Notes: generated by a model from the sequence alone, not told the origin. 64,000 bases of DNA from Actinomycetota bacterium (GCA_011046085.1 DSBK01000103.1:6084-70083); one strand, 5' to 3'; positions 15,296 to 56,818 are shown, counted from the first letter of the stretch. Made by a program: numbers and translations.

Positions 15296-15400
15296 AAGTG
15301 GGGAGATTTTTAGTTCGTTATTCATTGTTCGTAGTTCATAGCTCATTGCTCTGTCATAAGCTTTAAGCTATCTGCTATCTGCTATCTGCCATCGGTTATT
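15296..15400. repeat. Intergenic repeat element, copy 1 (heptad CTATCTG-type direct repeats plus TAGTTCG core)
   Basis: ...tagttcgttattcattgttcgtagttcatagctc...gctatctgctatctgctatctgccatcggttatttgctg; related to the elements at 22600, 25375, 31555, 51620 and 56760. Confidence 0.6.
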
Positions 15401-15409
15401 TGCTGTAAA

Positions 15410-18097
15410 TTACGCTCTCTCAACTCGCACTGCGCACACTTTAAGCTCGGGTATCTTCGATACCGGGTCGAGCGCAGAGTTGGTAAGCATATTTACCGGA
15501 GCTTCTTTGAAATGGAAGGGCACAAACACGGTTCCTTTTGGAACACGCGGAGCAACACATGCTTTAATTTCAACTTTCCCTCGCCGTGAGATGAGTTCGA
15601 CCCAATCATCGTCTTTTATATTAAGCTTTTTAGCATCTTCGGGGTTTATCTCAACCCTGGCCTCCCTGCAGACCTCGTCGAGCCCCATTGAATGTCTGGT
15701 CATCGTGCCAGTGTGATAGTGATACAAGAGTCTTCCAGTAGTTAAAACGAATGGATACTCTTTGTCCGTTTCCTCCGCAGGCGGCTTGTATTCAACCGCG
15801 TGAAATTTGCCCAACCCTCTTGTAAATTTCTCGGCGTGAAGAATTGGCGTTCCTGGATGCGTTGCGTCTGGGCATGGCCATTGAACGCTTTCTTTGCTCA
15901 CCCTCTCAAATGTTATTCCTCCATATGTGGGAGTGATGCTCGCAATCTCATTGGTAATTTCACCGACCGTCTCGTAATTCATCTCATAACCCATGACCTT
16001 CGCCAAATCGGAGATTATTAACCAATCGGGCCTGGAATTGCCAACTGGCGCAATGGCTCTTCTTACTATCTGAACTCTTCTTTCAGTATTGGTAAATGTT
16101 CCGTCTTTTTCAGCAAAAGAGACACCGGGTAGAACAACATCGGCAAGCTCAGCGGTCTCGGTTAAAAATATATCCTGAACGACTAAGAAATCCAACTTTT
16201 CAAAGGCTTCTTTCACGTGATTTAAATCGGGATCTGAGAGCATGGGGTTTTCGCCCATAATATACATGGCTTTGACCTCGCCACGCAAAACGGCATCCGT
16301 CATCTCGGTAACACTTAAACCGCCTTTTTCTGGAAGTTTCGCTCCCCAAATATCTTTGCACTTCTCAATAATCCCCAAATCGCAGACATTTTGATAACCG
16401 CTTACGCAACCGGGAAGCGCGCCCATATCACAGGCACCCTGAACGTTGTTCTGTCCCCTCAGCGGATTAACGCCCGCTCCAGGCCTTCCGATGTTTCCGG
16501 TAAGCATTGCCAGATTAGCAATGGAGAGAACGTTGTTCGTGCCCGTGGTGTGCTGGGTTATTCCCATACAGTAAAAGATTGCCCCGTTTTTAGCCGCAGC
16601 AAAGAGCCGCGCCGCCTTCCTTAAAGAATCGGCCGGTATGCCCGAAACATTCTCAACTTTCTCAGGCGTATATTTAATAACTGTTTTCTTTAATTCTTCA
16701 TAATCTTCCGTTCGTTTATTGATAAAGTCCTTATCTTCCAAGCCCTCCTCAATTATCACGTTCATGAGCCCGTTTAAAACAGCGACATCTGTTCCTGGTT
16801 TTTGAGAGAGCCACATATCGGTGTATTCTGTTAGCCGAATTTTTCGAGGATCAATTACAATTAATTTCGCTTTAAAATCATATACCGCTCTCTTCATCTC
16901 AAGAGCAACTATCGGATGATTTTCGGTGGTATTTGATCCGATAACGAGCATTACATCAGCTTTAACTATGTCATCAAGGGAGTTTGTCATCGCTCCGCTT
17001 CCAAACGCTTTGACCAGACCGGCCACAGTTGGAGCGTGTCACAAACGGGCACAATGGTCGATATTGTTTGTGCCAATCACCGCCCTCATAAATTTCTGCA
17101 TCAAATAATTTTCTTCATTGGTGCACTTTGCCGAGGAAAGACCCGCAATTGCATCTGAGCCATGTTTCTTTTTTATCTTTGAAAACTTGTCTGCAACGGT
17201 TTTAATTGCCTCATCCCACGAAGTCTCAACAAGCTCCCCGTTTTTTCGAACCAAGGGCGAGGTGAGTCTGTTGGGGTGATTTACGAAATCATAACCAAAC
17301 CTACCCTTTGCACAAGCATTTCCTTTATTGATACCACTCTCAACATCGGTTGAAACACGAACAATTTCGCCGTTTTTAATTTGGATTTCTAGCTCACAGC
17401 CACATCCGCAATAAGGACAGATGGTCTTCACTTTTTCTATTTCCCAGATTCTTCCCTTATATCTGCTCATCTTTTCAGTTAAAGCTCCTGTGGGGCAGGT
17501 GGATACACACTGCCCGCAAAGCTCGCACTTGGTTTCGATGAGCGACCTGTCATAAGGAGTTGTAACTATGGCATCGAAACCTCGGTTAGCAAAGGTATAG
17601 ATGCTGTTTTGCTGAACCTCCTCACAGATACGAACGCAACGGCCACAACTTATACATTTATTTAAGTCCCTTTCAATCAAAGGATTGTAATCTTCGATGG
17701 TATAGGTATGTTTTTCCCCTTCAAAACGGTTCTCTTCTATCCCCAGTTCATAAGCTAAATCTTGAAGTTGGCACTGCCCCGCGCTCTCACAGGTCACACA
17801 GCTTAACTCATGATCGGAAAGCAGTAATTCAACAATGGTTCTTCTGATTTCATAAAGCGGAACCGTATTGGTCTTTACAACCATGCCATCGATGACTTCG
17901 GTCGCACAGGCTGGCAGAAAAGTTCTTGCTCCTTCAACTTCAACGAGGCAAACTCGACAGGCTCCATACGGTTTAAGCCGCGGGTCATGGCAGAGCGTTG
18001 GAATTTTTATCCTATTTTCGCCGGCTACCTCAAGTATGGTTTTGCCGGGTTCGGTTTCAATTTTTCTATCATTTATGACCAAGTTAATCTTCGCCAT
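15410..18097 (-). CDS. fdhA: Selenocysteine-containing formate dehydrogenase catalytic subunit (FdhA; N-terminal 2Fe-2S/4Fe-4S domains plus Mo-bisPGD domain), one gene with an in-frame UGA at 17039-17041
   Basis: ORFs 17039-18097 and 15410-17026 are in the same frame. Reading through the TGA gives ...NNIDHCARL-U-HAPTVAGLVKAF..., the canonical Sec motif of FdhF/FdhA (E. coli ...RVUHGPSVAGL). The C-terminal part carries the molybdopterin dinucleotide-binding domain. Confidence 0.85.
16986..17038 (-). promoter_or_regulatory. SECIS-like hairpin immediately 3' of the fdhA UGA
   Basis: mRNA: UGA CACGCUCC AACUGUGGCC GGUCU GGUCAAAGCGUUUGGAAGCGGAGCG. The lower stem is CGCUCC/GGAGCG and the upper stem is GGCC/GGUC with a GGUCU apical loop, closely resembling the E. 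coli fdhF SECIS (UGCA-GGUCU-GCA) at the same distance from the UGA. Confidence 0.55.
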
Positions 18098-18108
18098 GCT
18101 TCCTCCGT

Positions 18109-18537
18109 TTACTTTTCTTTCTTCTTGGCGACCCTTGCTCCAAGCTCAATTAAGATACAGTCGATAAAATCCTTAACAAAGTTCGCTATGTCTGATATGG
18201 AAAGAATTCCCACAACTTTGCCATCGACGACAACCGGCAGATATCTTATCTCAAGTTCTTCCAATAATTTAGCCGCCTTTGCCGCTTCCATTTCGGGAGG
18301 AACAGAAACGACGCTCTCATGCATGATGCCGCCTACTTTTACCTCTCGAGCATTTAATCCAGAGGCAACAATCTCTGTGACTATCATTCTGTCAGTAACT
18401 ATTCCAAGAAGTTTTTTGTCAACGAGAACAAGAAGCGAACCGACCTTTTTTGTCCTCATAATTTTTGCCGCTTCTTCCGCCGTGGCATCAGGCGAAATTG
18501 AAACGGGATCCTCGGTCATTATGTCTTTAACGATCAT
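18109..18537 (-). CDS. CBS-domain pair protein
   Basis: Two CBS motifs (IMTEDPVSISPD...; HESVVSVPPEM...). Confidence 0.8.
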   Translation of the reverse strand: MIVKDIMTEDPVSISPDATAEEAAKIMRTKKVGSLLVLVDKKLLGIVTDRMIVTEIVASGLNAREVKVGGIMHESVVSVPPEMEAAKAAKLLEELEIRYLPVVVDGKVVGILSISDIANFVKDFIDCILIELGARVAKKKEK

Positions 18538-18558: not shown

Positions 18559-20376
18559 TTACTCGGCAACGTATATGGCATCAAACGGGCAGTGTTGCAT
18601 GCAGATACCACATTTTACACACTTTGCCACGTCTATTTCGTGTGGCTGTTTCTTTTCTCCACTTATTGCCCCAACCGGACAGTGTTTTTTGCAAACCCCG
18701 CATCCCTTGCAAATATTCTCTTTGATAATATAGGCAATGAGCTCCGAGCATACTCCCGCTCGACATCTTCCTTCTTTAACATGTTCTTCAAATTCCTTAC
18801 GGAAATATTTAAACATCGTGAGAACCGGATTCGGAGCTGTTTGTCCCAAACCACAGAGCGACGAAACCTTAATGTCCTGCGCCAAGTTTTCCAGGAGAAC
18901 CAGCTCTTCCTCATTGCTCTCTCCTTTTGTCATCCGTTGAAGCATCTCGAGCATCCGCTTGGTCCCGACCCGGCAGGGAACGCATTTTCCACACGACTCC
19001 TTCTGGGTAAAGGCCAAGAAATATCTTGCCAAATCGACCATACATGAGCTTTCATCCATAACAACCATCCCACCGGAGCCTACAATGGCGCCCGTTTGGG
19101 TTAGAGATTCGTAATCTATCGGCGTATCAAGAAACTCAGCTGGAAGGCATCCGCCGGATGGACCTCCAATTTGAACGGCTTTAAACTCCTCATCATCTTT
19201 TACCCCACCACATATATCGAATATTACTTCTCTCAGCGAGGTTCCCATGGGAACCTCGACCAATCCGCCGTTCTTAACCTTTCCCGTAACCGCAAAAATC
19301 TTGGTGCCTTTGCTTTTCTCCGTTCCTATGGCAGCAAACTTGTTGGCGCCGTTAATTATTATCCAGGCGATATTCGCAAGCGTCTCAACGTTGTTAATAT
19401 TGGTAGGTTTACCCCAAAGCCCGGATTGTGCCGGAAAAGGTGGACGAACCCTAGGCGTTCCCCTTCTGCCCTCAATCGACGCCATAAGCGCCGTTTCTTC
19501 CCCGCAAACGAAAGCGCCGGCGCCCTCTTTTATCTTAATCTCAAAATTAAAAGAGCTGCCAAGAATATTTTTACCCAAAAAACCTTTCTTCTTGACATGC
19601 TCAACCGCAATTTTTAATCGCTTAACGGCCAAGGGATATTCAGCTCTAACATATATATACCCCACAGACGCGCCAATGGCATAAGCGGCTATCATCATTC
19701 CTTCAAGAACGCTATGAGGATCACCTTCTAAAACACTCCTGTCCATAAACGCTCCAGGATCTCCCTCGTCCGCATTACAAATGAGATACTTTACATCACC
19801 GGAGGCCTTCCGAGCAAAATCCCACTTAATACCCGTGGGAAAACCAGCGCCACCGCGGCCCCTCAAACAGGAGGCCTTAACCTCCTCGACAACCTCTTCC
19901 GGAGTCATCTCGCTTAAAACTTTTTTAAGCGCCTCGTAACCGCCATGCTCTATATAATTGTCAATCTCTTCTGGGTCAATTTGCCCACAGTTTCTAAGAA
20001 CTATCCTCGTTTGTTTCTTATAAAAATTTATGTCCTTATAGAAAGGAACTTTCTCGCCCGTTGATGGGTCTTTGTAAAGTAAATCATCAATAATCTTGCC
20101 ACCCAACAGATGTTCTTCAACGATACGAGCTACATTCTCCGCTGAAACCATTGGATAAAAAATACCTTCAGGTTGAATGACAATAATTGGACCTTGCTGA
20201 CAAAAACCATGGCAACCAGTCTGAACAATATCTATTTCAGAAATCTTCCGCTTTTTAAACTCTTCTTTGAAAGCAGCATTTACTCTGTCTGCGCCGCTCA
20301 AAATACAGCCAGTTCCTGTACAGATAAAGACCCTATTTTGTTCTTCTTTGACATCTATTTTGCCCATAAATTTCAC
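18559..20376 (-). CDS. NuoF-like NAD(P)H-binding flavoprotein subunit (HydB/FdhB type; N-terminal thioredoxin-like 2Fe-2S, FMN/NADH site, C-terminal 2x[4Fe-4S])
   Basis: RGRGGAGFPTGIKW, GEETALM and ESCGKCVPCRVG (N3 cluster) motifs plus C-terminal CxxCxxCxxxCP x2. Confidence 0.85.
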   Translation of the reverse strand: MKFMGKIDVKEEQNRVFICTGTGCILSGADRVNAAFKEEFKKRKISEIDIVQTGCHGFCQQGPIIVIQPEGIFYPMVSAENVARIVEEHLLGGKIIDDLLYKDPSTGEKVPFYKDINFYKKQTRIVLRNCGQIDPEEIDNYIEHGGYEALKKVLSEMTPEEVVEEVKASCLRGRGGAGFPTGIKWDFARKASGDVKYLICNADEGDPGAFMDRSVLEGDPHSVLEGMMIAAYAIGASVGYIYVRAEYPLAVKRLKIAVEHVKKKGFLGKNILGSSFNFEIKIKEGAGAFVCGEETALMASIEGRRGTPRVRPPFPAQSGLWGKPTNINNVETLANIAWIIINGANKFAAIGTEKSKGTKIFAVTGKVKNGGLVEVPMGTSLREVIFDICGGVKDDEEFKAVQIGGPSGGCLPAEFLDTPIDYESLTQTGAIVGSGGMVVMDESSCMVDLARYFLAFTQKESCGKCVPCRVGTKRMLEMLQRMTKGESNEEELVLLENLAQDIKVSSLCGLGQTAPNPVLTMFKYFRKEFEEHVKEGRCRAGVCSELIAYIIKENICKGCGVCKKHCPVGAISGEKKQPHEIDVAKCVKCGICMQHCPFDAIYVAE

Positions 20377-22509: not shown

Positions 22510-22599
22510 TTAAACGCTCACCTTCGTCGATGTACAACCCGGCTTACCTGATATCTGATACAGGACATTATTTGGTTGGCTGACCCGTACCGGGCAACT

Positions 22600-22885
22600 T
22601 TAATAATAGTCGATGGCCCAAAACTCTCTGCTCCATTAGTCGATAGTCTCTTAGTGGGGAGTCGGCAGTAAGTTCAATTGAGAATTAAAAACGAAAAAAT
22701 TTAAAATCTTTAAAGACATTCTTAATTTTTAATTACCGCCCGCACTGGGGTGGGTCGTTTTTATTTTTTTCGTAAGACCAGCATCTGGCATTCTCCATTC
22801 TCCATTTGTCTTCTAACTTTCCCCTTTCCCCTTCACCCTCTACCCTTATTTTGCCTTCTGCCATCTGCCATCAGCTATATGCAAT
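22600..22885. repeat. Intergenic repeat element, copy 2 (full length, about 250 bp)
   Basis: ...attagtcgatagtctcttagtggggagtcggcag...AT-rich linker...cccctttccccttcaccctctacccttattttgccttctgccatctgccatcagctatatgcaattag; near-collinear with copy 4 (31555-31790). Confidence 0.7.
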
Positions 22886-23943
22886 TAGCCAAAATATTTG
22901 TCTCTCAAAACGGAGGAAAGCTCAGCCGTTAATTTTATGCTTTTTTCCGCCAAATCCACCGCCATTGAACCCGTGCCACAATTTGGCGTGATTAAGCTCG
23001 CCTCAAGGAGTTTCATCTTATCAGCACCCTTGTCGACCAATAATTGAACTTTTTCTTCAAACCTTTTAAGTAAATCTTCCAGGGTCTCACCCGATATCGC
23101 ATCTGGACTCGGATAGGTGGATGGGACTATCCCCCAGGCGAGCACCCCTCCTCTATCCAAAAAATTATTGAGTTCTTTTGGATATAAGGCCATGCTTTCA
23201 GTGTGGTCATACGCATCGAAGCTTATGATGTCAACGGCAGTTTCCATTAAGATGCTCCAGTCAGTGCGACCACAGCAATGAACCCCGCAAAGGCTGTCCA
23301 CCGCATAAAAACACTCATTTAAATAGGATATAACCTCGTCTTTATTGAGTTTTATGTAAGCCGAGCCGTAAGACTGAAGATAGGGCTCGTCAAAGAAAAC
23401 AACCGTTTTTACATCGGGAGATAATTTCTTAAATTGTCTTAATTGCCACTTAGCCTTCATGATAAGCGTCTTTATGATGGCATCTCTTAAAAGATCATTG
23501 TAAAGAACCGCTTGTTTGTTTTGATCGGTTACGGTCAAACCAAAGCTAATTGGCCCTATCATCTGGCCTTTTAACATAACCAAATCAGCCGGCATGCTCT
23601 TTTCCAAGATGCTCATCATAGCATGGAACCCACGCGCGTAATCTTCGGATATCTTGAAATAATCTAAATCTTCGGCCAAAAATCTATCATAAAACCTCTC
23701 AAGCTCCCATGCCAAATTTCCCCGGGCCTCGAGATGAATCCTTTTCTTTTCCTCATCTATCCTTATCGCCGGCATGCCCTCTGAAATTTGAATGAACATG
23801 CTCTCTTTGAAAGAAACGTTAGGAAGTTGGGGCCATATCGGTATCTGGGGAGTATGCTTCAAAACCACCTCACACGCTTTATCTGCGTCTATGTGCGGCA
23901 TACTTCCAATGGTTGTCGGAAGACAGCATGGCTTAAATTCCAT
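22885..23943 (-). CDS. Short MetE-like (cobalamin-independent methionine synthase C-terminal fold) methyltransferase
   Basis: CCLPTTIGSMPH matches the MetE C-domain motif LPTTTIGSFPQ; the roughly 350 aa UroD/MetE-fold size is typical of methylcorrinoid-dependent methyltransferases. Confidence 0.65.
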   Translation of the reverse strand: MEFKPCCLPTTIGSMPHIDADKACEVVLKHTPQIPIWPQLPNVSFKESMFIQISEGMPAIRIDEEKKRIHLEARGNLAWELERFYDRFLAEDLDYFKISEDYARGFHAMMSILEKSMPADLVMLKGQMIGPISFGLTVTDQNKQAVLYNDLLRDAIIKTLIMKAKWQLRQFKKLSPDVKTVVFFDEPYLQSYGSAYIKLNKDEVISYLNECFYAVDSLCGVHCCGRTDWSILMETAVDIISFDAYDHTESMALYPKELNNFLDRGGVLAWGIVPSTYPSPDAISGETLEDLLKRFEEKVQLLVDKGADKMKLLEASLITPNCGTGSMAVDLAEKSIKLTAELSSVLRDKYFG

Positions 23944-25367: not shown

Positions 25368-25374
25368 CGAGAAA

Positions 25375-25469
25375 CTCCTTTGGTTGAGAGTCTGTTAGTC
25401 GGTAGTGAGGAGTTACTAGTTGTTAAACCTTCGTTTCATCACCCTCAACTACCCACTCCCCACTAATAA
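25375..25469. repeat. Intergenic repeat element, copy 3 (core module)
   Basis: gagtctgttagtcggtagtgaggagttactagttgttaaac...ctacccactccccactaataactacccact. Confidence 0.55.
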
Positions 25470-26399
25470 CTACCCACTGGCCTTTGGCCTGGGCAAAAAC
25501 CCCGCTTTCTCAACTATGCCCGACACAACTTCCTCCCACTCAACCGCCATTATGTGTACACCGGCTATGCCTTTTATCTTCTTAACTTGCTCAATAATAT
25601 CGACACAGATGTTTTTGCCTTCCTCTTTGGCTCCCTCTTTTCCAACGGCAACCATCCGCTCAATGACTTCGTTTGGAACATCCATGCCGGGAACACAGCT
25701 TTTCATATACTTTGCCATCCCCACAGATTTTAAAGGAGCAACACCCGCAAGTATGTAAACCTTCTTATGTAAACCAAGTTCTCTAACCATCTCCATCCAT
25801 TTGGCAAACTTTTCAACATTATAAACAATTTGTGTCTGAACAAAGTCGATCCCGGCTTCAACCTTTTTTGCGAGACGCAGCGCCCTGTATTCAAAGGGGT
25901 CAGAGAAGGGATTTTCGGCCGCTCCAACGAAGAAGCGCGGTTCCACCTCTATCTCCTCGCCGCATTGGAACTTCTTCTCGTCGCGCATATCTTTAATCAT
26001 CTTAATGAGCTGTATGGAGTCTAGATCAAAAACATTTTTCGATTGAGGGTGATTGCCAAATTTTTGATGATCACCGGTTAGACAAAGAAGATTTTTTATC
26101 CCCAAAGCGGAAGCCCCCAATAAATCGCTTTGTATCGCTATGCGGTTCCTGTCGCGACAGGTCATTTGGATTATCGGCTCTAGACCTTTCGAAACCAATA
26201 TCGCCGCCGCCGCAATTGAGGACATCCTAACCACCGCCGTCTGACAATCGGTAATATTTACCGCGTCAACACAGTCCTTTAAGATGTCCGTTTTTTTGGA
26301 AATAACTTCGGCATCGGCGCCTTTTGGGGGACCAAGCTCGGCCGTTACCGCAAAATGTCCTGCTTCCAAAACCTTCTCAAGATTGCTTCCCGATTTCAC
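25470..26399 (-). CDS. metF: Methylenetetrahydrofolate reductase (MetF)
   Basis: MTHFR TIM-barrel: VNITD, LCLTGD, LGASALGIKN motifs; 309 aa. Confidence 0.9.
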   Translation of the reverse strand: MKSGSNLEKVLEAGHFAVTAELGPPKGADAEVISKKTDILKDCVDAVNITDCQTAVVRMSSIAAAAILVSKGLEPIIQMTCRDRNRIAIQSDLLGASALGIKNLLCLTGDHQKFGNHPQSKNVFDLDSIQLIKMIKDMRDEKKFQCGEEIEVEPRFFVGAAENPFSDPFEYRALRLAKKVEAGIDFVQTQIVYNVEKFAKWMEMVRELGLHKKVYILAGVAPLKSVGMAKYMKSCVPGMDVPNEVIERMVAVGKEGAKEEGKNICVDIIEQVKKIKGIAGVHIMAVEWEEVVSGIVEKAGFLPRPKASG

Positions 26400-31534: not shown

Positions 31535-31554
31535 ATATAAATCTCCTTTCAGTC

Positions 31555-31790
31555 GATTTTAGCTATCAGCCATTTGCTACCTGCTATCTACCATCAGCCA
31601 TTTAGTCGGTAGTCTCTTAGTCGGGAGTCGGGAGTTAACAATTATTAGTTTCTTAATTCTTTAATTCCTGTTACCCGTTCCCTATTACCCTTTGCTATTG
31701 TTGTTTTGCAGCCTACGGACTCTCTACCCTTTCCCCTTATTTTGCTATCAGCTATCTGCCATCTGCTATTTGCTATTTGCCAATTAGAAC
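31555..31790. repeat. Intergenic repeat element, copy 4 (full length)
   Basis: agctatcagccatttgctacctgctatctaccatcagccatttagtcggtagtctcttagtcgggagtcgggagttaac...ccctttccccttattttgctatcagctatctgccatctgctatttgctatttgccaattag. Confidence 0.7.
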
Positions 31791-33985: not shown

Positions 33986-35939
33986 TTTCCAGCTCCCTCC
34001 TCATTTCCATATCGTAAAGCACTCTCTCTTTTTCGCGGTCTATTCCCAGGGCCTTTCTTCTCTTATCTATATTCTCAATCAGAATCTTAGCCATCTTAAC
34101 AGGATCGGGCTCGTAAAACCACTTTCCGCCCGTCGTCTCCTCAATTTCTTTAAAGAGATAATCGGATATTATCTCGCTGTTAGCTGTCGGGAAGGAGACA
34201 CCGAAACCAACCACGGCTCCGCTTGAGACAAAGTACTGACCTATGGCTACAGCTTTTTCGCTCATCCATTCCGGAGCGCAGCCAGCAGCCGGTATCTCGC
34301 TTATATCTTCACCGAGACCGCCTTCTTTAACTATCTCCGAGACAGCGACGAGAATTCGGCTGTTATCAACACACGAGCCGCAATGAAGCACGGGGGGGAT
34401 ACCCACCGCCTCGCAAACCTCGCGCAAACCAGCGCCCGCCAACTCGGCGGCTTCGGGGATAAGCAACCCTTCCTTTGCGCAACTTATCGCTGCGCAACCC
34501 GTAACCAAAACAAGTATGTTGTTTGCGATAAGCTCCTTAACCAATGTGGTGTGGACATAATCGTGTTTTACGCGCGGGTTGTTGCACCCCACAACGCCCA
34601 CAACGCCCTTTATCCTGCCATTGATTATGTTGTCGTTTAATGGTCTGTAAGAAGCGCGGAACCTTCCGCCTAGCATGTAGTTTATGGTTTCGTGAGAAAA
34701 GCCCGCCACAAGTTCAATTTCTTCTTTGGGAATATCGACCTTTCTCCTTTTGGGATAATTTTTAATGGCCCTTTTGACGATATTTTTTGCCGTTTCAATG
34801 GCATTATGATGATCGAATTCCATATGCGTGGCGCCCAAAATTTTACCCTTAGAAGAGGTAGTGATTATCTCTGTATGATAGCATTGAGCTACCGTCGGCA
34901 AAGACTGCATGATACATTGCACATCCACCACCATTGCATCGACAGCGCCCGTACAGATGGCCAACTCCTGCTGTAAGAAGTTGCCAGCCACGGGAATACC
35001 TTTGCGCATCAAAATTTCATTTGCCGTGCAACATATGCCAGCGAGGTTTATGCCTTTAGCGCCCGCCTCCTTGGCCTGTTCAACTAACTCAGGATCCCTT
35101 GTCGCGGCAACTATCATCTCGGAAAGCAAGGGCTCGTGACCGTGAACGATTATGTTAACTTCATCTTCTTTAAGGACACCTAAATTCACCTTTGCCCTGA
35201 TTGGAATGGGGGTCCCAAACATTATGTCTTGAAGCTCAGTGGCAAGCATCGAACCACCCCAGCCATCAGCTAAAGATGCCCTGCAACCATGAAGCAGGAT
35301 ATTTTTATAATCCTGATCGACGCCCATGTGGGTCCTGTGCATGGTTTCAACTATCTCGCGGTCAACCCCGCGAGGCGATATTCCTTCTTCTCTCCAGCGT
35401 TCTTGTCTCTTTTTCGGAGCTTGTTTTACAAGAGTTATTTCACCTTGCTGTTTGCTCATCTCAGCGAGAGCTCTCTCGCCCAACTCCAAAGCTATCTGGT
35501 TTTTGTCTTTGCCTTCTACATTGATATCAAAAGTTTTGGCCAAGGCATGCAATTTCGTGTCATCTTTTATCTCATAGCCGGGCACTTCGCCTTTTGCTGC
35601 AGCAATAAAGGTAAATATAACTTCCCTTGCGTGATCCGAGTGCGCGGCCGCCCCAGCAGCAATCATTCGAACAAAGTTTCTAGCCGCAACCGTGGAAGTG
35701 GTAGCGCCACAAACCCCGGTTCTTGTCTCGGTTACCCTGCAAGGACCCATTGAACATATTCTGCAACACGTTCCGCCCGAACCAAACGAACATGACTTAA
35801 GGGAAGCGACCCTATCAAAAGCGGTCTCTGCCCCGTCTTTTTTAGCCTTATTTATCATTTTTGCGCTTGCGGTGCAGCTGGTCTGCTCGCTAGCAGCAGG
35901 GTAAAATTTGTTTTCTCCGTTTTCGTTTTGTTTTTTCAT
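33978..35939 (-). CDS. acsA: Anaerobic Ni-Fe-S carbon monoxide dehydrogenase catalytic subunit (CooS/AcsA)
   Basis: N-terminal CCRICSMGPCR and downstream Cys/His C-cluster motifs; about 650 aa; immediately upstream of acsB with 8 nt overlap. Confidence 0.9.
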   Translation of the reverse strand: MKKQNENGENKFYPAASEQTSCTASAKMINKAKKDGAETAFDRVASLKSCSFGSGGTCCRICSMGPCRVTETRTGVCGATTSTVAARNFVRMIAAGAAAHSDHAREVIFTFIAAAKGEVPGYEIKDDTKLHALAKTFDINVEGKDKNQIALELGERALAEMSKQQGEITLVKQAPKKRQERWREEGISPRGVDREIVETMHRTHMGVDQDYKNILLHGCRASLADGWGGSMLATELQDIMFGTPIPIRAKVNLGVLKEDEVNIIVHGHEPLLSEMIVAATRDPELVEQAKEAGAKGINLAGICCTANEILMRKGIPVAGNFLQQELAICTGAVDAMVVDVQCIMQSLPTVAQCYHTEIITTSSKGKILGATHMEFDHHNAIETAKNIVKRAIKNYPKRRKVDIPKEEIELVAGFSHETINYMLGGRFRASYRPLNDNIINGRIKGVVGVVGCNNPRVKHDYVHTTLVKELIANNILVLVTGCAAISCAKEGLLIPEAAELAGAGLREVCEAVGIPPVLHCGSCVDNSRILVAVSEIVKEGGLGEDISEIPAAGCAPEWMSEKAVAIGQYFVSSGAVVGFGVSFPTANSEIISDYLFKEIEETTGGKWFYEPDPVKMAKILIENIDKRRKALGIDREKERVLYDMEMRRELEIV

Positions 35940-38485
35940 TTACTGGCTCCTCCTTTTGAAACACTTACAGCAATGAGCCGATGCTGTGGACTCTTTAACT
36001 TTGAATCCACGTTATCGCTTGCCAAAACGCCTCTTTCTTCATGACAACTTGGCATAAACAGCAACCCTTTGGGCAAAGAGCCGAGCATCTTCACCGATGT
36101 TGTTATCTTGCCTCGCCTAGAGGAAATTAAAACCGCGTCTCCTTCTTTTAAACTCAAAGACTCAGCATCCTCGGGGTTAAAGCCAGCGTAATTTCCCTTG
36201 TTTAATTCAAGAATAGACAGTTTCGAATTTCTTGTTCTTTGCCCATCGTAAAATCCAAATGATGTCTCGCCAACAATAAGCGCGTAAGGATACTTGCCAT
36301 CGGGTTCTTCACCAGACTTTTTTGGTTTTACAACGATAAAATCGTATGTATTCTTTTCGATCTTCTTGGGAATGGGAACCAGGGACTTTATCTCCTTGGC
36401 AATCTCTTTCTCAGAAGAGTATTCCATAGTATAGTCCATTCTTTCAGACAAATCAGCTATTGTCTCCCAGTCGGGTTTAGCCAAGGGTTCGAGAGCCGCC
36501 TTCACCTCTTTTGTCTGATACTCCAAGTTAACAACGGTGCCATTACTCTCGGCTAAAGTCGCGCCGGGCAACACAACATCTGCCATTTTCGCGGTTTCCG
36601 TCAAAAACACATCTTGAACCACCAAAAAATCTAAAGATGAAAACGCCTTCGCCACCTTTGATGAATTAGGAAACTGCGCAACCGGGTCCGCGCCGACAAT
36701 ATACATTCCTAAAACGGACGAGCCCATGTTTTCAACCATTTCCATGGCCGACAATCCCATTTCGTCGGGAAGATCGCGTTCCCATATTTTCTTGAAATCG
36801 TTCCCGATTTCATTCGCTCTCCTTGCGCCCGGATAAAACCCAGCCAAAGCCCCCATGTAGATCGTACCTCGCAAGTTGGAAGACAAAAGACATGGTAGCA
36901 CGCTTGCTTTGGTTCTTCCGGTTAGAAGCGCGATATCGGCAATTAATCCCATGCTTTGAGAGCTCACGGTTTCCGCTCCAAAGAGAATGATTGTCTTTTT
37001 GCCTTCTCCGTAAAGCTTTGCGGCTTCCTTTAAAAAGTCCTTGGATGTTTTTGTTTCCTTTTCTATGGTTTCTACTTTTAATCCGTCGAGAGACTTCTTA
37101 AATTCATCAAAATTCTTACACTTTTTAGTAAATTTTTCGTCATGCAGGTTTTCTTCCAGCAATTCCTTTAAAATCCCGCTTAAGACAAACTCTTCGGAGT
37201 CAACCTGTGGTTCTATATGAAGATCAGCAAGTTCAGAAATCTCCGTCTTTTTAGAATCAATGACAACGACTTTTGCTCCATTTAAAATTGCTTTTTTGAC
37301 ACTGGCGCCAACGCGAGGGTAAGACGCCGTAAGATCCGCGTTCACGAGCAAGAGAACGTCTGCCTCCTCAACATCCTTCATTGAAACAACAGCCCCATCC
37401 CTAAGCGCTTCATACAAATCAATTAAAGCGGGGAAACCTAAGAACCTGGCGGAACTATCGATATTGTTCGTCCCAATGCCAGCCCGCAAAAACTTCTGGA
37501 ATAAGTAAGCAACCTCATTTGTGTTTCCCGCTCCCATGAAACCACCGATGCTGTTTGCTCCATGTTTTTTCTTTATATCAATAAGACGCTCCGCCACAAC
37601 CTTAATAGCCTCTTCATAAGTACTCTCGGTTAAAACTCCATCCTTTTTAATTAAGGGCTTCGTAATTCGCTCAGAGCTTTCCACAAAATCCCATCCAAAC
37701 CTACCCTTTGAGCAAATATAATCACACGAGACCTCCCCGGTTGCCCTCATAATCTGTCCGTCCACGGTGCTAAACACAAGCTCACAACCGCAGCCACAGT
37801 AAGAACAGACCGTTTTTGTTTCTTTCATCTCCCATTCTCGACCACAAAAACGTCTATCAACCTCAACCAAAGCGCCAACGGGACAAACCGCGAGACAACT
37901 TCCGCAGAAATCACAACCCGACTCCTGTAATGGCCTATCCATTGGCGTAGCCACCTTGGTAACCATGCCCCTTTTGACAAAGTCAATAATATCCGCCCCC
38001 TGTTGTTTGCAGATTCTCACACACCTTCCGCAAAGAATACAGAGATTGTAATTTCTCTCTATGAAGGGATTGCTTCTGTCAACATCGTAACCTGGATCTT
38101 TCATTGAGAAACTGGTTTTCTCGATGCCAAGCTCGTAAGCATACTTTTGGAGATCGCAAGCGCCATTTTTATCGCAACTCATACAATCTCCGGGATGATT
38201 TGAAAGTATCAACTCCAGAACAAAACGCCTGGCCTCTCGAACTTTCTCCGTGTCGGTATCAACTACCATCCCATTCTTAACTTTTTGGGCACACGAAGCC
38301 ACAAGCCCTTTGCCTCCCTCAACTTCAACCAAACAAACCCTACACGAACCCGTGCTGGGAAGACATTCGCAGTAACAAAGATGAGGGATATCAATCCCCG
38401 CCATCTTGGCCGCCTGAATGATGAGAGTCCCTTCGGGAACTTTTATTTCTTTTCCGTTTATCGTTACGGTGACTTGATCACTCAA
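35936..38485 (-). CDS. FdhA/NuoG-like large Fe-S subunit lacking the Sec/Cys Mo ligand (non-catalytic electron-transfer paralog)
   Basis: Same N-terminal 2Fe-2S plus 4Fe-4S architecture and NNID motif as fdhA, but ...NNIDSSARFLGFP... replaces ...NNIDHCARLUHAP...; the C-terminal molybdopterin-binding-like domain is retained. Confidence 0.75.
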   Translation of the reverse strand: MSDQVTVTINGKEIKVPEGTLIIQAAKMAGIDIPHLCYCECLPSTGSCRVCLVEVEGGKGLVASCAQKVKNGMVVDTDTEKVREARRFVLELILSNHPGDCMSCDKNGACDLQKYAYELGIEKTSFSMKDPGYDVDRSNPFIERNYNLCILCGRCVRICKQQGADIIDFVKRGMVTKVATPMDRPLQESGCDFCGSCLAVCPVGALVEVDRRFCGREWEMKETKTVCSYCGCGCELVFSTVDGQIMRATGEVSCDYICSKGRFGWDFVESSERITKPLIKKDGVLTESTYEEAIKVVAERLIDIKKKHGANSIGGFMGAGNTNEVAYLFQKFLRAGIGTNNIDSSARFLGFPALIDLYEALRDGAVVSMKDVEEADVLLLVNADLTASYPRVGASVKKAILNGAKVVVIDSKKTEISELADLHIEPQVDSEEFVLSGILKELLEENLHDEKFTKKCKNFDEFKKSLDGLKVETIEKETKTSKDFLKEAAKLYGEGKKTIILFGAETVSSQSMGLIADIALLTGRTKASVLPCLLSSNLRGTIYMGALAGFYPGARRANEIGNDFKKIWERDLPDEMGLSAMEMVENMGSSVLGMYIVGADPVAQFPNSSKVAKAFSSLDFLVVQDVFLTETAKMADVVLPGATLAESNGTVVNLEYQTKEVKAALEPLAKPDWETIADLSERMDYTMEYSSEKEIAKEIKSLVPIPKKIEKNTYDFIVVKPKKSGEEPDGKYPYALIVGETSFGFYDGQRTRNSKLSILELNKGNYAGFNPEDAESLSLKEGDAVLISSRRGKITTSVKMLGSLPKGLLFMPSCHEERGVLASDNVDSKLKSPQHRLIAVSVSKGGASK

Positions 38486-38502: not shown

Positions 38503-39024
38503 TTAAACAATTTCTATGGCATCAACTTCACATACGGCCAGACATTTGCCGCAGTTAGTGCATTTTTTACTCTTAATATAATAGGGCTTATTATCCGAAA
38601 GATATGGAATCATTTTGTCTCCAACAATTGCATCCTCGGAACAAACCACTTTACAAGCTCCGCAAGACGTACATTTTTCTGGATTTATCCAATAATTTAA
38701 TATATCTTCACAGGACTTTTGGGCACAATGTTTCTCTTTTATATGTTCCTCATACTCGCCCTTATATGAGGACAAGGAGTCCTTTATAAAAACAGCGGCA
38801 TCTTTGCCCAACTTGCATCGGGCGGTGTCAATAATATGAGAAGATATCTCCTCGAGCAAAACCACGTCTTCCTCTTCTCCCTCTCCTTTTGTAATTCTTT
38901 CAAGAACATCGACCATTCGTTCCGTTCCAAGCATGCAGGGCAGACACTTACCGCACATCTTATCTTTAGTAAACCCCTTTAAGAATTCTAGCGTTATCAT
39001 AACGGAACAACCGTTGGCGCTCAC
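38503..39024 (-). CDS. Stand-alone NuoF C-terminal module homologue (N3-type cluster plus 2x[4Fe-4S])
   Basis: MCGKCLPCMLGTER... parallels ESCGKCPPCRIGTYE of the adjacent NuoF-like gene, followed by CTSCGACKVVC and CTNCGKCLAVC ferredoxin motifs. Confidence 0.6.
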   Translation of the reverse strand: MSANGCSVMITLEFLKGFTKDKMCGKCLPCMLGTERMVDVLERITKGEGEEEDVVLLEEISSHIIDTARCKLGKDAAVFIKDSLSSYKGEYEEHIKEKHCAQKSCEDILNYWINPEKCTSCGACKVVCSEDAIVGDKMIPYLSDNKPYYIKSKKCTNCGKCLAVCEVDAIEIV

Positions 39025-40958
39025 TTGACCACCTCCTGCCTGCCTGTCTGTCGGCAGACACGGCCGGCAGGCACAGCCTGCTTACCAGAAGATACAGTCT
39101 TTTCCTCAAACTCCCTCACAACACAACCTGTCGGGCAAACTCCTATACAAGCTCCGCACTTTTCACAATATGACTGGTCGATGTAGAACCTGTCCCGCTC
39201 TTCCACGATCGCGTCATAAACACATACTTCCTTACAAAGACCGCAAAGAAGACATTCCTCCTCATGTATTCTGTATCTACCAAGCGCCGTGCATGCGCCG
39301 GCTGGACAATATCTATTTCTTATATGAGCTTCATACTCATCCCTGAAATATTTGATGGTTGAAAGCACGGGATTGGGCGCGCTTTTCCCCAATCCGCAAA
39401 GAGCTGTCTCTTGAATATGCTTACCTATAATTTCAAGGCGCTCAATATCTCCCTCTTCACCTTTACCTTCAACAATTCTAGTCAAAATATTAAACATCTC
39501 ATACGTTCCAATCCTGCAAGGAGGACATTTCCCACAGGATTCCACCTGAGTAAAAGAGAGGAAGTATCTGGCAATTTCCACCATGCAATTGGACTCATCC
39601 ATAACAACAAGCCCGCCGGAGCCCATCATTGCCCCAACCTCATCCAATGAATCGAAGTCTACCGGCAAATCGAGATATTCTTTGGGGATACATCCGCCGC
39701 TGGGTCCACCCGTCTGAACGGCTTTAAACTCTTTGTCACCCAAAATGCCGCCACCTATATCGTAAACAATCTCTCGAATGGTGACCCCCATTGGAACCTC
39801 GATTAGGCCCGTGTTTTTAACTTTTCCAGTTAACGCAAATATTTTTGTTCCCGGTGAACCCTTTGTCCCAATGGAAGTGTACCAATCCGCTCCCTTGATT
39901 ATTATCGGAGCAATATTAGCCAAGGTCTCAACGTTATTCAATACGGTGGGTTTGCCCCACAAACCCTTCTCTACAGAACGAGGAGGCGTTGTTCGAGGCA
40001 TTCCTCTTTTGCCCTCAATGGAGAACATAAGCGCTGTCGACTCTCCACATATGAAGGCCCCCGCTCCCCGTTTTATTTCCAAATCGAAGTTAAAACAGCT
40101 CCCAAGTATATTATTACCCAACAAACCAAGCTCCCTCGCCTGATTAATGGCTATAGTTAAATTCTCAACAGCAAGAGGATACTCTTGTCTCACATATATG
40201 AACCCCTTTTCGCAGTTACCCAGAGCATAAGCGCCAATTGCCATGCCCTCGATGACTGAATGGGGATCTCCCTCAAGAACGCTTCTGTCCATAAAAGCAC
40301 CCGGGTCCCCTTCGTCGCCGTTACAAACAATGTACTTTATATTTCCCTTTGTTCTTCGGCCTCCTTCCCACTTTCTCCCCACAGGGAAGCCAGCGCCACC
40401 CCGACCTCTCAGGTTGGACTTTTTAACCTCGTCGATAACTTCTTCCGGGGTCATATCGCTCAAAACTTTTGCCAGAGCCTCATAACCACCAACCGCTATG
40501 TAATCCTCTATGTTGGTCGGGTCAATTTGACCACAATTTCTTAAAACTATTCTATGTTGCTTGCCGTAGAAGGAAATCTCTTCCTCTTTGACAGCAAGAT
40601 CACCCGTAATCGGGTCAACCACTTGCAGACGGTCAATGACCTTGCCACGGTTTATTGTAAGATCAATTATCTTAGCCGCATCAAAAGGATCAACTTTTTG
40701 ATAAAAGACATCAAGGGGCTCTACAATTACAATGGGGCCCTTTTCACATAATCCCTGGCAACCGGTGGGCCTTATTTCAAAATCGACACCTTGTTTGGCC
40801 GCTTCTTTTTTGAAGGCCTCCACCACCTTTTGGGAGCCCGAAGCGCGACATCCCGTTCCACTGCAGACCCGAACTATCGTCTTTTTCTGCCTTGCTCTTT
40901 TGTTACAAATTTTTTCTCTTAAAGCACTTAATTCTTTAAAATTTTTGAGTTTACTCAT
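39021..40958 (-). CDS. NuoF-like NAD(P)H-binding flavoprotein subunit (second copy)
   Basis: RGRGGAGFPVGRKW, ESCGKCPPCRIG and C-terminal 2x[4Fe-4S]; paralogous to 18559-20376. Confidence 0.85.
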   Translation of the reverse strand: MSKLKNFKELSALREKICNKRARQKKTIVRVCSGTGCRASGSQKVVEAFKKEAAKQGVDFEIRPTGCQGLCEKGPIVIVEPLDVFYQKVDPFDAAKIIDLTINRGKVIDRLQVVDPITGDLAVKEEEISFYGKQHRIVLRNCGQIDPTNIEDYIAVGGYEALAKVLSDMTPEEVIDEVKKSNLRGRGGAGFPVGRKWEGGRRTKGNIKYIVCNGDEGDPGAFMDRSVLEGDPHSVIEGMAIGAYALGNCEKGFIYVRQEYPLAVENLTIAINQARELGLLGNNILGSCFNFDLEIKRGAGAFICGESTALMFSIEGKRGMPRTTPPRSVEKGLWGKPTVLNNVETLANIAPIIIKGADWYTSIGTKGSPGTKIFALTGKVKNTGLIEVPMGVTIREIVYDIGGGILGDKEFKAVQTGGPSGGCIPKEYLDLPVDFDSLDEVGAMMGSGGLVVMDESNCMVEIARYFLSFTQVESCGKCPPCRIGTYEMFNILTRIVEGKGEEGDIERLEIIGKHIQETALCGLGKSAPNPVLSTIKYFRDEYEAHIRNRYCPAGACTALGRYRIHEEECLLCGLCKEVCVYDAIVEERDRFYIDQSYCEKCGACIGVCPTGCVVREFEEKTVSSGKQAVPAGRVCRQTGRQEVVK

Positions 40959-51556: not shown

Positions 51557-51619
51557 TTCTGTACGATTGTCGATAGTACGATTGTCGATAGCTTTAAAAC
51601 TACACCACCCGAGGACACA

Positions 51620-51790
51620 ACGGTCTCGGTCTTCAAAAAAATCCGCCTTTCCAGTTTAATAGTCAGGAGTCTGTTGGTCGGGGTGGAGGGCAAGCTCGAA
51701 TTAAAAAATAAAATATAAAAATGAAAACTAACAGCTCTTAGCCTCCAGCCCTCAGCTGCCAAACGCCCCGCCAGCAGCGGGCAAGCGCCA
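51620..51790. repeat. Intergenic repeat element, copy 5 (diverged)
   Basis: agtcaggagtctgttggtcggggtggagggcaagctcg...AT-rich...ctcttagcctccagccctcagctgcc. Confidence 0.45.
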
Positions 51791-53569: not shown

Positions 53570-53665
53570 ACTGCTTCACTTAACAAATATTATTTTTTTA
53601 ACGAAACTAAGCACCAAAATATAACGCCTTGCTTAAAAAAATCAAATGCCCCTCTATTTTAAACT

Positions 53666-54133: not shown

Positions 54134-54222
54134 TTGTTTCCTCCTCGCTTAAAAAAACACCCTTAGTATACCACTTTGGAAGAAAAATTAAAAAACATGC
54201 AGAACAAAATGTACAACTATAT

Positions 54223-54687
54223 TTATCGAATAAGCTGTAAAGCTTTACTAACTGCTTCAGAAGGTCCACTGGCAGAGATGATTGCCTCTATGGGTTCCCC
54301 TTCTTTATTCAACTCCCAGGTTTCTATCCCCACCACAAACCTACCCATCTTCAAGGCAAGGCCTATCTCCGAAAGTGTCCCAAACTCTCCTCCGATCGCT
54401 ATCACCACATCGGAAGCCCCAACCACTAGGGCATTCCGCGCTTCAGCCATTCCCGTAGGAATTGCCACATCGACAAAGGAATTTGCATATTTCCTTGTCT
54501 TTGAAGGCAAAATACCGACCGTTAACCCTCCCGCACCTTTAGCGCCCCTACAGGCAGCTTCCATGACGCCTCCCAACCCGCCGCAAACAAGAATGGCCCC
54601 ATTCTGTGCTATTTCTTTTCCAACTTTACAAGCAACTTCAGCTAGTTTGTTGTCACACTGTCCTGCGCCTATTACCCCAACATACAT
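54223..54687 (-). CDS. TIGR00725/LOG-family Rossmann-fold protein
   Basis: GAGQCD...VCGGLGGVMEAACRGAKGAGG...GGEFGTLSEI. Confidence 0.75.
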   Translation of the reverse strand: MYVGVIGAGQCDNKLAEVACKVGKEIAQNGAILVCGGLGGVMEAACRGAKGAGGLTVGILPSKTRKYANSFVDVAIPTGMAEARNALVVGASDVVIAIGGEFGTLSEIGLALKMGRFVVGIETWELNKEGEPIEAIISASGPSEAVSKALQLIR

Positions 54688-54699
54688 ATCAAAACCCCC

Positions 54700-55608: not shown

Positions 55609-55631
55609 ATAAACCAGACCTTAAAGAAAAG

Positions 55632-56648
55632 TTAAAGCAGATTGCGTTCCAACAAAACTTCCGCTATTTGGGTAGCGTTTAGAGCGGCGCCCTTTCGTAA
55701 ATTATCCGCTACAATCCAGAGATTAAGTCCGTTTTTAATAGATTCATCTTCGCGAATCCGCCCAATATAACAAGCATCTTTATTCGCCGCAAAAATAGGG
55801 AGAGGATAAACCAGATTTTCGGGGTCGTCAATTACTTCGACACCCGGCGCATTCTTTAAAATTTCGCGTGCTTTATCGGCAGTTATTTTCTTTTCAGTTT
55901 CAATGTTAACCGACTCTGAATGAGAGATTAAAACGGGGACCCTGACACACGTTGCGGTTATTCCCATTTCATCGTCTCCCATAATCTTCCGAGTTTCGTT
56001 CACCATCTTCATCTCTTCTTTGGTATAACCATTTTCTAAAAAACCATCGATATGGGGAAGTAAGTTAAAGGCTATCTGGTGGGGATATACATTTAACTCA
56101 ACCTTCTTCTCGCCCAAGACTACGCTTTTAGACTGATTTAAAAGTTCTTCAATAGCTTCTTTGCCGGTGCCTGAAACTGCCTGATAGGTTGAGACAACCA
56201 CTCTTTTAATCCTGGACCTATTATAAAGCGGTTTGAGGGCAACCACCATCTGAATGGTTGAACAATTCGGATTGGCAATAATTCCCTTGTGCCAGCTCAC
56301 ATCATCAGGATTAACTTCCGGAACAACCAGGGGAACGTCGGGTTTCATTCGAAAAGCGCTGCTGTTATCGATAACTACTGCCCCTGCACGAACAGCATGT
56401 GGAGCATATTCTTTGCTTATTTGAGCGCCAGCCGAAAAAAGGGCAACATTAATGTCTTTGAAAGAACTCTTGGTTAACTCTTCAACCGTTACACCGGTCC
56501 TTTTAAATGTTAATCGACGACCTGCGGATTTAGCGGAAGCAAGCAATTTGAGTTTTTTAACAGGAAACTTTCTTTGCTCTAGCACCTTGCGCATTTCTTC
56601 GCCTACAGCACCCGTAGCTCCCACTATCGCCACATTATATTCTTTCAC
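55632..56648 (-). CDS. asd: Aspartate-semialdehyde dehydrogenase
   Basis: VAIVGATGAVG NAD-binding motif; active-site Cys region; 338 aa. Confidence 0.9.
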   Translation of the reverse strand: MKEYNVAIVGATGAVGEEMRKVLEQRKFPVKKLKLLASAKSAGRRLTFKRTGVTVEELTKSSFKDINVALFSAGAQISKEYAPHAVRAGAVVIDNSSAFRMKPDVPLVVPEVNPDDVSWHKGIIANPNCSTIQMVVALKPLYNRSRIKRVVVSTYQAVSGTGKEAIEELLNQSKSVVLGEKKVELNVYPHQIAFNLLPHIDGFLENGYTKEEMKMVNETRKIMGDDEMGITATCVRVPVLISHSESVNIETEKKITADKAREILKNAPGVEVIDDPENLVYPLPIFAANKDACYIGRIREDESIKNGLNLWIVADNLRKGAALNATQIAEVLLERNLL

Positions 56649-56759
56649 TCTTTCTTACCTCCAAAAATCAGTTATTTGTTAGTGGTTGATTGTTAATAGC
56701 AAACAAAAATCAAAATTTTTCAATTGCCGTTTTTATCTTTTACTTTTCATTTTTAATTA

Positions 56760-56818
56760 ACTTTTAACTCTACCCTTTGCCCATTACCCTTATTTTGCTA
56801 TCTACCATACGCCATTAG
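56760..56818. repeat. Intergenic repeat element, copy 6 (3' module only)
   Basis: ctctaccctttgcccattacccttattttgctatctaccatacgccattagctatttcc. Confidence 0.55.

Follow-up and report, generated by a model that had tools for sequence, protein, structure and literature searches.

Introduction

Heptanucleotide repeats have been on record for decades in cyanobacteria, giant sulfur bacteria, Bacteroidetes and Geobacter, yet no agreement on their function or origin has been reached. Those of cyanobacteria include the STRR heptanucleotide tandem repeats, reportedly described by Mazel and colleagues in 1990. The present study deals with a related phenomenon in a DNA stretch of 64,000 nucleotides (nt) from an Actinomycetota bacterium (GCA_011046085.1, DSBK01000103.1:6084-70083; hereafter the window), in which six intergenic gaps hold elements made of 7-nt arrays and, in part of them, a conserved C-rich core of 35 nt. 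That these elements represent a real, heptamer-based family of dispersed repeats is, taken alone, practically certain.

Heptamers have been described as the commonest long simple-sequence repeats (LSSRs) of prokaryotes, with slippage of the polymerase being proposed as their source (Mrazek et al., 2007, as cited in PMC4679880). The elements of the window resemble the STRR/LSSR class in their head-to-tail 7-nt arrays, their mostly intergenic position (including operon spacers), their many loci and several unit sequences per genome, their sporadic phylogenetic spread and the slippage proposed for them. Unlike in the case of STRR, the host is an anaerobic actinobacterium and not a cyanobacterium, and in contrast to the STRR/LSSR class as a whole the arrays are short and degenerate (2-5 good units), follow a recurrent module order and end in the conserved 35-nt core. 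Tandem copies of the STRR1-3 units (CCCCAGT, TTGGTCA and CAACAGT) are absent from the window. As both unit sequences and host differ, the elements belong to the general heptanucleotide class and not to the STRR families proper.

In marine Beggiatoaceae, Cyanobacteria and Bacteroidetes, direct repeats of TAACTGA are located just upstream of start codons (MacGregor, 2015; PMC4679880). There, the unit overlaps or replaces the Shine-Dalgarno sequence (SD), and a translational role at the RNA level was proposed, which is as yet unproven (PMC4679880). Like the elements described here, these are strongly sense-oriented heptamer direct repeats upstream of the start codons of unrelated, partly essential genes. 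The likeness is, however, one of layout only (18 of 19 cores in sense orientation, many of them 3-35 nt from the start), as the TAACTGA family has a single unit, whereas here a normal SD follows the core and additional arrays are found on the side of the stop codon. No TAACTGA tandems occur in the window. Heptamer repeats near start codons of Nostoc show effects in reporter assays (bioRxiv 10.1101/2022.06.06.494920), and for Geobacter metallireducens elements with four units of GGACCGG (49 copies) and five units of MTYCTGA (16 copies) were described (Aklujkar et al., 2009; PMC2700814). The G. metallireducens elements share with those of the window a conserved block of four to five tandem heptamers at tens of loci and a predicted regulatory role, but they have other sequences, belong to another phylum, occur in the case of GGACCGG also within genes, and were not described with flanking arrays of other heptamers. 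The unit sequences of the known heptamer families are absent here.

Mosaic interspersed repeats of intergenic DNA are further known as BIME/REP in E. coli, BOX in pneumococci and MIRU in mycobacteria. REP and BOX act via palindromic hairpins. MIRU consist of 46-101 bp units with small open reading frames (ORFs) overlapping the flanking stop and start codons, and are intercistronic and orientation-specific in an actinobacterium. The elements of the window are likewise modular, have a variable number of sub-units and reside in presumably transcribed intergenic spacers of operons; yet their units are 7 nt long, non-palindromic and non-coding. Contiguous 7-bp heptads are also bound cooperatively by the omega repressor of pSM19035, with the copy number being of importance, but the omega heptads have one conserved sequence and lie at promoters, whereas the arrays described here show no link to promoters or to a ribbon-helix-helix protein. 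A limited literature search under the names of the genus and class did not reveal any account of such repeats in the lineage. The phenomenon belongs to a known, still unexplained class; particular to the present case are the host phylum, the order from stop codon to SD and the conserved 35-nt core.

Results and discussion

Six gaps share a seven-nucleotide period

An ORF map places nearly all genes of the window beyond 13.6 kb on the minus strand. The original prediction had named six gaps in this region as sites of a related, strand-oriented family of intergenic repeats, located after the stop codon of one gene and ahead of the ribosome-binding site (RBS) of the next. All six were recovered between minus-strand ORFs, the strings that had been quoted for them were found in the sequence, and the description of the family holds. 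A connection with the known heptanucleotide tandem repeats had not been drawn in the prediction. The gaps are given below with their flanking genes (upstream, then downstream on the minus strand; assigned by Pfam/NCBIfam).

14874-15409, minus: FdhA, then Fic
22510-22884, minus: an unassignable protein of 352 amino acids (aa), then CooC
25368-25469, minus: MetF, then an HdrC-like ferredoxin
31535-31783, minus: AcsB, then AcsC
51557-51790, minus: a GGDEF/Fe-hydrogenase-like sensor, then a Nudix protein
56649-56818, minus: LysC, then Asd

Compared with themselves at lag 7, the six gaps show an identity of 0.35-0.52, whereas the value is about 0.25 for the 14 other gaps of at least 40 nt. A sliding scan (42-nt frames, at least 60% self-match, lags 2 to 12) yielded eight segments at lag 7, all of them inside the six gaps, and none or a single one at every other lag. 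Exact two-unit heptamer tandems are found in the 4.8 kb of non-coding DNA of the window in six of seven cases, and Tandem Repeats Finder (TRF) reports a period of 7 in five of the six gaps, the exception being 56649-56818. The six gaps are united by a 7-nt period, and no other gap or period behaves alike. The repeat length of 7-8 nt given previously can be narrowed to 7 nt, with 8-nt units forming a minor class only.

The shortness of the units, and the fact that some contigs end inside arrays, might raise the suspicion of a chance similarity of low complexity or of an artefact of metagenome assembly. This explanation is virtually excluded and can be regarded as refuted: the period-7 and motif statistics exceed those of shuffled sequences and of other repeat periods; the identical sequence is present in independent assemblies (ENA ERZ27245514, Logan SRR7787775 and JGI 3300022547); and the elements are conserved in two further species.

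A conserved core and a recurrent module order

From 19 distinct copies a C-rich core of 35 nt with the consensus ACTNCCGACTCCCNACTAAGAGACTNCCGACTAA could be derived, consisting of four to five GACT-heptads whose middle spacing is 8 nt and not 7. The sub-motif ACTAASAGACTNNNRAC occurs four times in the window, against 0.04 expected occurrences, and all four are on the minus strand and in gaps. A hidden Markov model (HMM) built from the 19 copies gave three strong matches in the window (31597-31641, 22630-22675 and 25374-25419), two marginal ones (51653-51691 and 15275-15312, with E of about 0.4) and none in 56649-56818. E-values of 1e-6 to 1e-13 were obtained in the window and in L003, L040 and L057-L067 (L-numbers, here and below L002, L003, L019, L040 and L047 to L067, are labels of comparison loci from other contigs). 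Many core copies lie 3-35 nt, often 10-35 nt, ahead of the next start codon and are followed by a normal SD, and in subsets of loci longer shared units precede the core. GACT as an extended RBS motif was found ahead of few start codons only. Across species, the core and the SD region are 90-97% identical, compared to 77-80% for the flanking genes and their coding DNA, a contrast that may be due to selection or, alternatively, to rapid homogenisation.

Read along the coding strand, the modules form a recurrent series of (GATRGCA)n close to the stop codon, G-rich units, an AT-rich stretch, the C-rich core and the SD. The (GATRGCA)n array starts at, or within a few tens of nt of, the upstream stop codon; the G-rich units are of the types GGGTAGA, GGGGAAA and GGGTAAT (GGGTAAA-like) and are sometimes followed by additional heptamer types (GAATGGA, ACGAACW and GCTGAGG). 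All modules are present only in the gaps 22510-22884 and 31535-31783, and it is only for these two that the earlier description of each element as core, linker, CCCTTTCCCC and arrays is correct. The same two had been considered collinear over about 230 bp. They do share the module order, but only short stretches can be aligned, namely two by BLAST (30 nt with 93% and 50 nt with 84% identity) or one of 65 nt with 60-66% identity in a repeat-finder family. The individual elements are composed as follows.

15275-15409, minus: element downstream of the fdhA stop codon
15366-15404, minus: (GATAGCA/GATGGCA) array; TRF period 7 at 15367-15404
about 15313-15345, minus: (ACGAACW/ATGAAYW) array; TRF period 14 at 15313-15339
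15275-15312, minus: truncated core-like stretch, core HMM E=0.45
14874-15274: remainder of the gap between fdhA and fic, no heptamer signal

22510-22884, minus: full composite between the gene for the 352-aa protein and cooC; members in three repeat-finder families (D2, D3 and D7)
22848-22884, minus: (GATGGCA) array
22815-22848, minus: G-rich (GGGTAGA/GGGGAAA) array, containing a canonical G-quadruplex motif at 22821-22845
22789-22806, minus: 2.6 units of GAATGGA
22736-22755: hairpin with a T-run on the plus strand
22676-22735: AT-rich stretch
22630-22675, minus: core, HMM E=2.4e-13
below the core, down to 22510: unique sequence and SD

25368-25469, minus: compact element between metF and the hdrC-like gene
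25374-25419, minus: core abutting the SD, HMM E=9.6e-8
25441-25469, minus: G-rich heptamers (GGGGAGT/GGGTAGT), the reverse complement of core-type units and able to pair with the core
25445-25480: inverted partial copy of the core, found with the core HMM

31535-31783, minus: full composite between acsB and acsC
31743-31783, minus: array of five (GATAGCA/GATGGCA) units, beginning 6 nt past the stop codon
31723-31737 and 31670-31691, minus: G-rich arrays
31642-31669: AT-rich stretch
31597-31641, minus: core, HMM E=5.9e-14
31555-31600, minus: second array, (GATGGCW)
31539-31570, minus: conserved SD-proximal AAAATCGACTGAAAGGAG

51557-51790, minus: degenerate element between the GGDEF/Fe-hydrogenase-like sensor gene and the Nudix gene, lag-7 self-identity 0.40
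about 51728-51756, minus: (GCTGAGG/GCTGGAG/GCTAAGA) heptamers
51699-51727, minus: T-rich heptamers
51653-51691, minus: weak core-like stretch, HMM E=0.41, with the sub-motif at one mismatch
51561-51591: separate tandem duplication of 15 nt

56649-56818, minus: element between lysC and asd, lag-7 self-identity 0.52, without a core (no HMM match); members in two repeat-finder families (D2, 77%; D3, 72%)
56796-56823, minus: (GATAGCA-type) array overlapping the lysC stop codon
56773-56795, minus: G-rich heptamers (GGGTAAT/GGGCAAA/GGGTAGA)
56666-56772, minus: A-rich heptamers

Distribution in the genome and in related species

The window is closest to Ca. Oleimmundimicrobium americanum UBA3085 and to a metagenome-assembled genome (MAG) named "Actinomycetes bacterium", each with 86% identity of AcsC, followed by an Actinomycetota MAG with 72% AcsC identity. 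This places it in the lineage Actinomycetota, Ca. Aquicultoria, Ca. Oleimmundimicrobiaceae. Two contigs, one from ENA (85 kb) and one from Logan, encode a protein identical to its AcsC; the Logan contig begins inside a repeat. Contigs of independent assemblies were seen to end inside heptamer/core elements (the start of L002 and the end of L040, 18695-18809), which is to be expected if contigs break at arrays that are dispersed repeats.

A scan of metagenomes with the core pattern gave 12 loci on at least nine contigs from two JGI metagenomes. The 15 cores of these loci all lie between genes, and 14 of them share the strand of their neighbouring genes. As two of the loci are identical to a UBA3085 contig or to each other, they represent the genome of Ca. 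O. americanum. The genes downstream of the cores in this species are mfd, a phosphoribosyltransferase gene, gatA, gatB, a surface protein gene, recR, a class-III aminotransferase gene, acpS and hom. The idea that the elements mark the joints of a Wood-Ljungdahl supercluster can therefore not be upheld, since in the sister species the same core precedes diverse housekeeping genes. The family is not specific for the Wood-Ljungdahl pathway, as these cores and also two of the six gaps of the window (lysC/asd and GGDEF sensor/Nudix) border unrelated genes, and the view of Wood-Ljungdahl gene regulation remains unchanged, because the elements are not specific for the cluster.

In 216 kb of DNA from the lineage, 12 (GATRGCW)n arrays were identified, all of them in gaps and 11 in sense orientation; eight of the 12 begin between -5 and +37 nt from a stop codon. 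Of 27 G-rich arrays located in gaps of the same DNA, 24 have sense orientation. The two close relatives are fully syntenic with the window, yet orthologous gaps differ two- to fivefold in length (one value for each of the three species):

acsB/acsC gap: 249, 494 and 106 nt
metF/hdrC-like gap: 102, 250 and 150 nt
352-aa protein gene/cooC gap: 375, 265 and at least 115 nt

Orthologous gaps share module types, with (GATGGCW)n again directly after the stop codon, while a core at a given orthologous site may occur in one species and be missing from another. The comparison of related genomes which had been suggested with the original prediction thus revealed modules kept in three species and none in a more distant relative: in L053, the relative with 72% AcsC identity and a GC content of 55%, the gaps are plain, with lengths of 128 nt and about 8 nt, and lack a period-7 signal. 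These data show that no fewer than three species of the Ca. Oleimmundimicrobium group possess the family, beside unrelated housekeeping genes, and that both its copy number and its content undergo a rapid turnover from species to species.

Structure, promoters and mobility

Neither matches to Rfam 15 at the gathering threshold nor tRNA or tmRNA genes (ARAGORN) were found in the window. When the sense RNA of whole gaps was folded, it was no more stable than predicted from its composition (z from -2.5 to +1.0), and compared to coding RNA four of the six gaps, as well as the average of all six, were less stable. The sole notable hairpin is that of 25368-25469 (-36.8 kcal/mol, z=-2.55), which results from its G-rich heptamers being the reverse complement of core-type units. 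The RNA of 31535-31783 has no stable fold (z=+0.43). A search of the window for G-quadruplexes returned one canonical motif (22821-22845), and as it is the only one, such structures are not a general property of the elements. The core itself is unstructured (-1.1 to -2.2 kcal/mol, z of about 0) and not palindromic. A function of the core as an anti-SD, sequestering the RBS, was considered and rejected, as pairing of the SD is no different from that in control genes.

Dispersed copies in many gaps, a mosaic make-up and presence or absence at orthologous sites are features which could also be expected from a unit mobilised in trans, resembling a miniature inverted-repeat transposable element (MITE) or REP/BIME. 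However, a search for terminal inverted repeats was negative, the ends are not constant, and only blocks of 30-65 nt with variable flanks can be aligned; no inverted pairs were detected within the gap 31535-31783. A scan of viral contigs with the core gave 0 matches. In addition, the orientation is strongly biased, unlike that of REP pairs. This explanation is very improbable and was rejected. The earlier proposal of a miniature mobile element fails for the lack of terminal inverted repeats and fixed boundaries, and the designation as REP-like does not fit a non-palindromic core with a folding energy of -1 to -2 kcal/mol and a z-score of about 0.

Promoter and terminator scans of both halves of the region gave counts that equal the expectation from shuffled sequences, and the only terminator-like site within an element is the hairpin at 22736-22755, which has its T-run on the antisense strand. 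These results bear on the idea that the GACT-heptads, and perhaps other ones, are operator arrays at the DNA level for a cooperative global regulator or nucleoid protein, comparable to the heptad arrays of omega. It could draw on the four to five conserved direct heptads in many unlinked intergenic regions, on the Geobacter elements, which were predicted to be "global regulator sites" (PMC2700814), and on the heptad operators of SARP and ToxR type listed in the literature. Yet many cores lie 3-35 nt from a start codon in co-directional gene strings without promoter-like sites above chance, and the 8-nt spacing of the middle heptads departs from a strict 7-nt register. Moreover, the bulk of every element is made up of other heptamers, which vary and would not be read by any single protein, and a linked candidate gene for a regulator was not found. 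The diversity of heptamer types inside one gap likewise speaks against the iterated transcription-factor array considered in the original prediction. Iterated binding sites on DNA are therefore an improbable explanation.

Possible origin and function

We see slightly better than even chances for a joint reading in which the elements are lineage-specific, genome-wide mosaic intergenic heptanucleotide repeats that originated by slippage and recombination and play a role at the RNA level. The arrays would arise and change through slippage-type tandem duplication of 7-nt units, and whole modules would spread between gaps by recombination or gene conversion, and not by transposition. The elements would persist in the untranslated spacers of co-directional gene strings because they do no harm in this position or are of use. 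As part of the mRNA they would adopt little structure, with purines prevailing after the stop codon and, ahead of the SD, a sequence rich in C and poor in G. Given these properties, an activity at the RNA level would appear the most likely one. The modules of the spacer or leader would offer a single-stranded platform for a protein or RNase, which, once bound, would tune processing, decay or translation of the downstream cistron. Judged for itself, such an RNA-level function is conceivable, with chances somewhat below even, and the elements may act as intercistronic regulatory elements, as contemplated in the original prediction.

The main rival is that the elements are a neutral or selfish by-product, that is, slippage-prone junk which accumulates in harmless spacers and whose modules are shared via gene conversion without any function in cis. 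Their rapid turnover, with cores present or absent at orthologous gaps, would fit, as would the several heptamer sequence types inside one gap, the toleration of antisense copies and the lack of any structural, promoter, terminator or SD-masking signal. Period-7 arrays in unrelated phyla, in the same gene neighbourhood, also suggest a general mutational propensity (as proposed by Mrazek et al., 2007, cited in PMC4679880). What makes this rival rather unlikely is the 35-nt core, which is conserved to at least 90% over 19 dispersed copies and between species with 77-80% coding identity, together with a fixed module order, positions anchored to stop codon and SD, and a strong strand preference. 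Pure drift should erase core, order and strand bias, unless homogenisation is very fast.

Several observations nevertheless weigh against the joint reading of slippage, recombination and an RNA-level role. The core is in sense orientation in 18 of 19 copies, which differs clearly from an even distribution (p=8e-5 against 0.5) but not from the gene-strand bias of 85% (p=0.20). With the majority of the genes on a single strand, this bias of the core is inseparable from one relative to the replication strand, and an analysis of the skew at third codon positions (GC3 skew) found too few opposite-strand genes adjoining elements to part transcription from replication orientation. At least five arrays or composites are antisense to both neighbours (L061, L057 at 10822, L059 at 9759, L060 at 10303 and L062 at 1589), with L061 carrying a whole inverted composite. 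Orientation is therefore a preference and no requirement. The presence or absence of cores at orthologous gaps implies that any given copy is dispensable. Also, the pairing probability of the SD in core leaders (0.45-0.74) equals that of controls (mean 0.59), and pairing of the core with upstream arrays is not above that of shuffled sequences (mean z of -0.64, with one of 18 below -2). A strain found via a LysC variant, the other protein clusters being singletons, is 99.95% identical over 17 kb and differs by nine single-nucleotide polymorphisms (SNPs), all in coding sequence; it has no indel in the two gaps covered, a comparison whose power is low with nine SNPs in total. At this scale, ongoing slippage was not observed, and the arrays gave no sign of being hypermutable.

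A more far-reaching version of RNA-level activity, which we regard as unlikely, would be a genome-wide post-transcriptional "punctuation". The GACU-heptad core before the SD, and possibly the purine heptads past the stop codon, would be recognised by a dedicated RNase or a dedicated protein that binds single-stranded RNA. The cistrons of long operons, the Wood-Ljungdahl cluster among them, would thereby be cut, stabilised or uncoupled in translation. If true, this would be the first mechanistic handle on bacterial heptamer arrays in general.

Independent of their function, the elements extend the occurrence of heptamer repeats to an uncultured, low-GC, acetogenic lineage of actinobacteria. Their unusually orderly layout, with arrays at the stop codon and the core at the SD, leads to concrete predictions for the mapping of transcript ends in metatranscriptomes. 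On the practical side, the repeats fragment short-read metagenome assemblies of the lineage, simple ORF calling yields spurious ORFs across arrays, and the repeats vary enough between species to serve as markers.

Further repeats in the compared loci

Lag-7 arrays occur in 14 of the 54 fetched loci of AcsC relatives. They adjoin acsC in MAGs of unrelated Desulfobacterales, in an Omnitrophota MAG and in ANME-1, which underlines that the preference for 7 nt is general. In L048, about 30 copies of CGTAACN/CGAAACN end directly at the SD of acsC. The arrays in unrelated taxa are located at the following positions.

L048: 1201-1569
L019: 9846-10000
L047: 20102-20709
L051: 5617-5704

The longest perfect array encountered comprises about 11 units of GCTCTCT (AGAGAGC on the other strand) in L064 (12384-12472), in a divergent gap between a gene of the semialdehyde dehydrogenase family (asd/argC-type) and a gene for a Y-family DNA polymerase. 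In L065 (176-221), four exact copies of CAGCCTC lie within the coding sequence of a cofactor-independent phosphoglycerate mutase (...QPPASSLQPP...), so that genes, too, evidently tolerate an expansion of heptamers on occasion. The loci of Ca. O. americanum also contain a second dispersed family with a hairpin-type unit, CGTCATTGCGAGCG...(GC-rich stem-loop)...GTGGCAATCTCAG. It was observed at L058, L061 (1300-1420), L062 and L064 (12270-12370) and is often interleaved with heptamer modules.

Flanking genes and neighbouring features of the window

The gene names used previously agree with Pfam/NCBIfam for acsB/acsC, metF/hdrC-like, fdhA/fic and lysC/asd. The label "metE-like" for the gene upstream of cooC is, however, unsupported, because the 352-aa protein (22885-23943, minus) has no match in Pfam (E ≤ 1), NCBIfam or PDB sequences. 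Its gene lies between an HdrB-like gene and cooC, and the protein is conserved, with equal length, in both close relatives.

The gene for the FdhA alpha subunit (15410-18097, minus) appears as two ORFs that are split by an in-frame TGA (stop codon 17039-17041) in the context ...DHCARL*HAPTVAGL.... Position and context of this TGA are those of the selenocysteine in FdhA, and most likely the two formate dehydrogenase ORFs are one selenoprotein gene and not two genes. Paralogous modules are found on the minus strand at 18559-20376 and 39021-40958, and also at 17039-18097 and 35936-38485; one paralogous pair has 70-73% nucleotide identity across several blocks of 118-197 nt, and the second module is accompanied by a second FdhA/NuoG-like gene, which encodes 849 aa without interruption.

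Among the sigma-70-like sites of the region, the best one (TTGACA-17-TATACT, 11 of 12 positions; 14832-14860, minus) falls within the 5′ end of the annotated fic ORF, whose TTG start codon is at 14873. The start of fic may be located further downstream, with its own promoter and apart from the fdh operon. The gap 60379-60867 (minus), which is free of heptamers, contains two near-identical GC-rich hairpin terminators of 34 nt, located at 60429-60462 and 60802-60835, 373 nt apart, each with a stem of 11-13 bp followed by a T-run.

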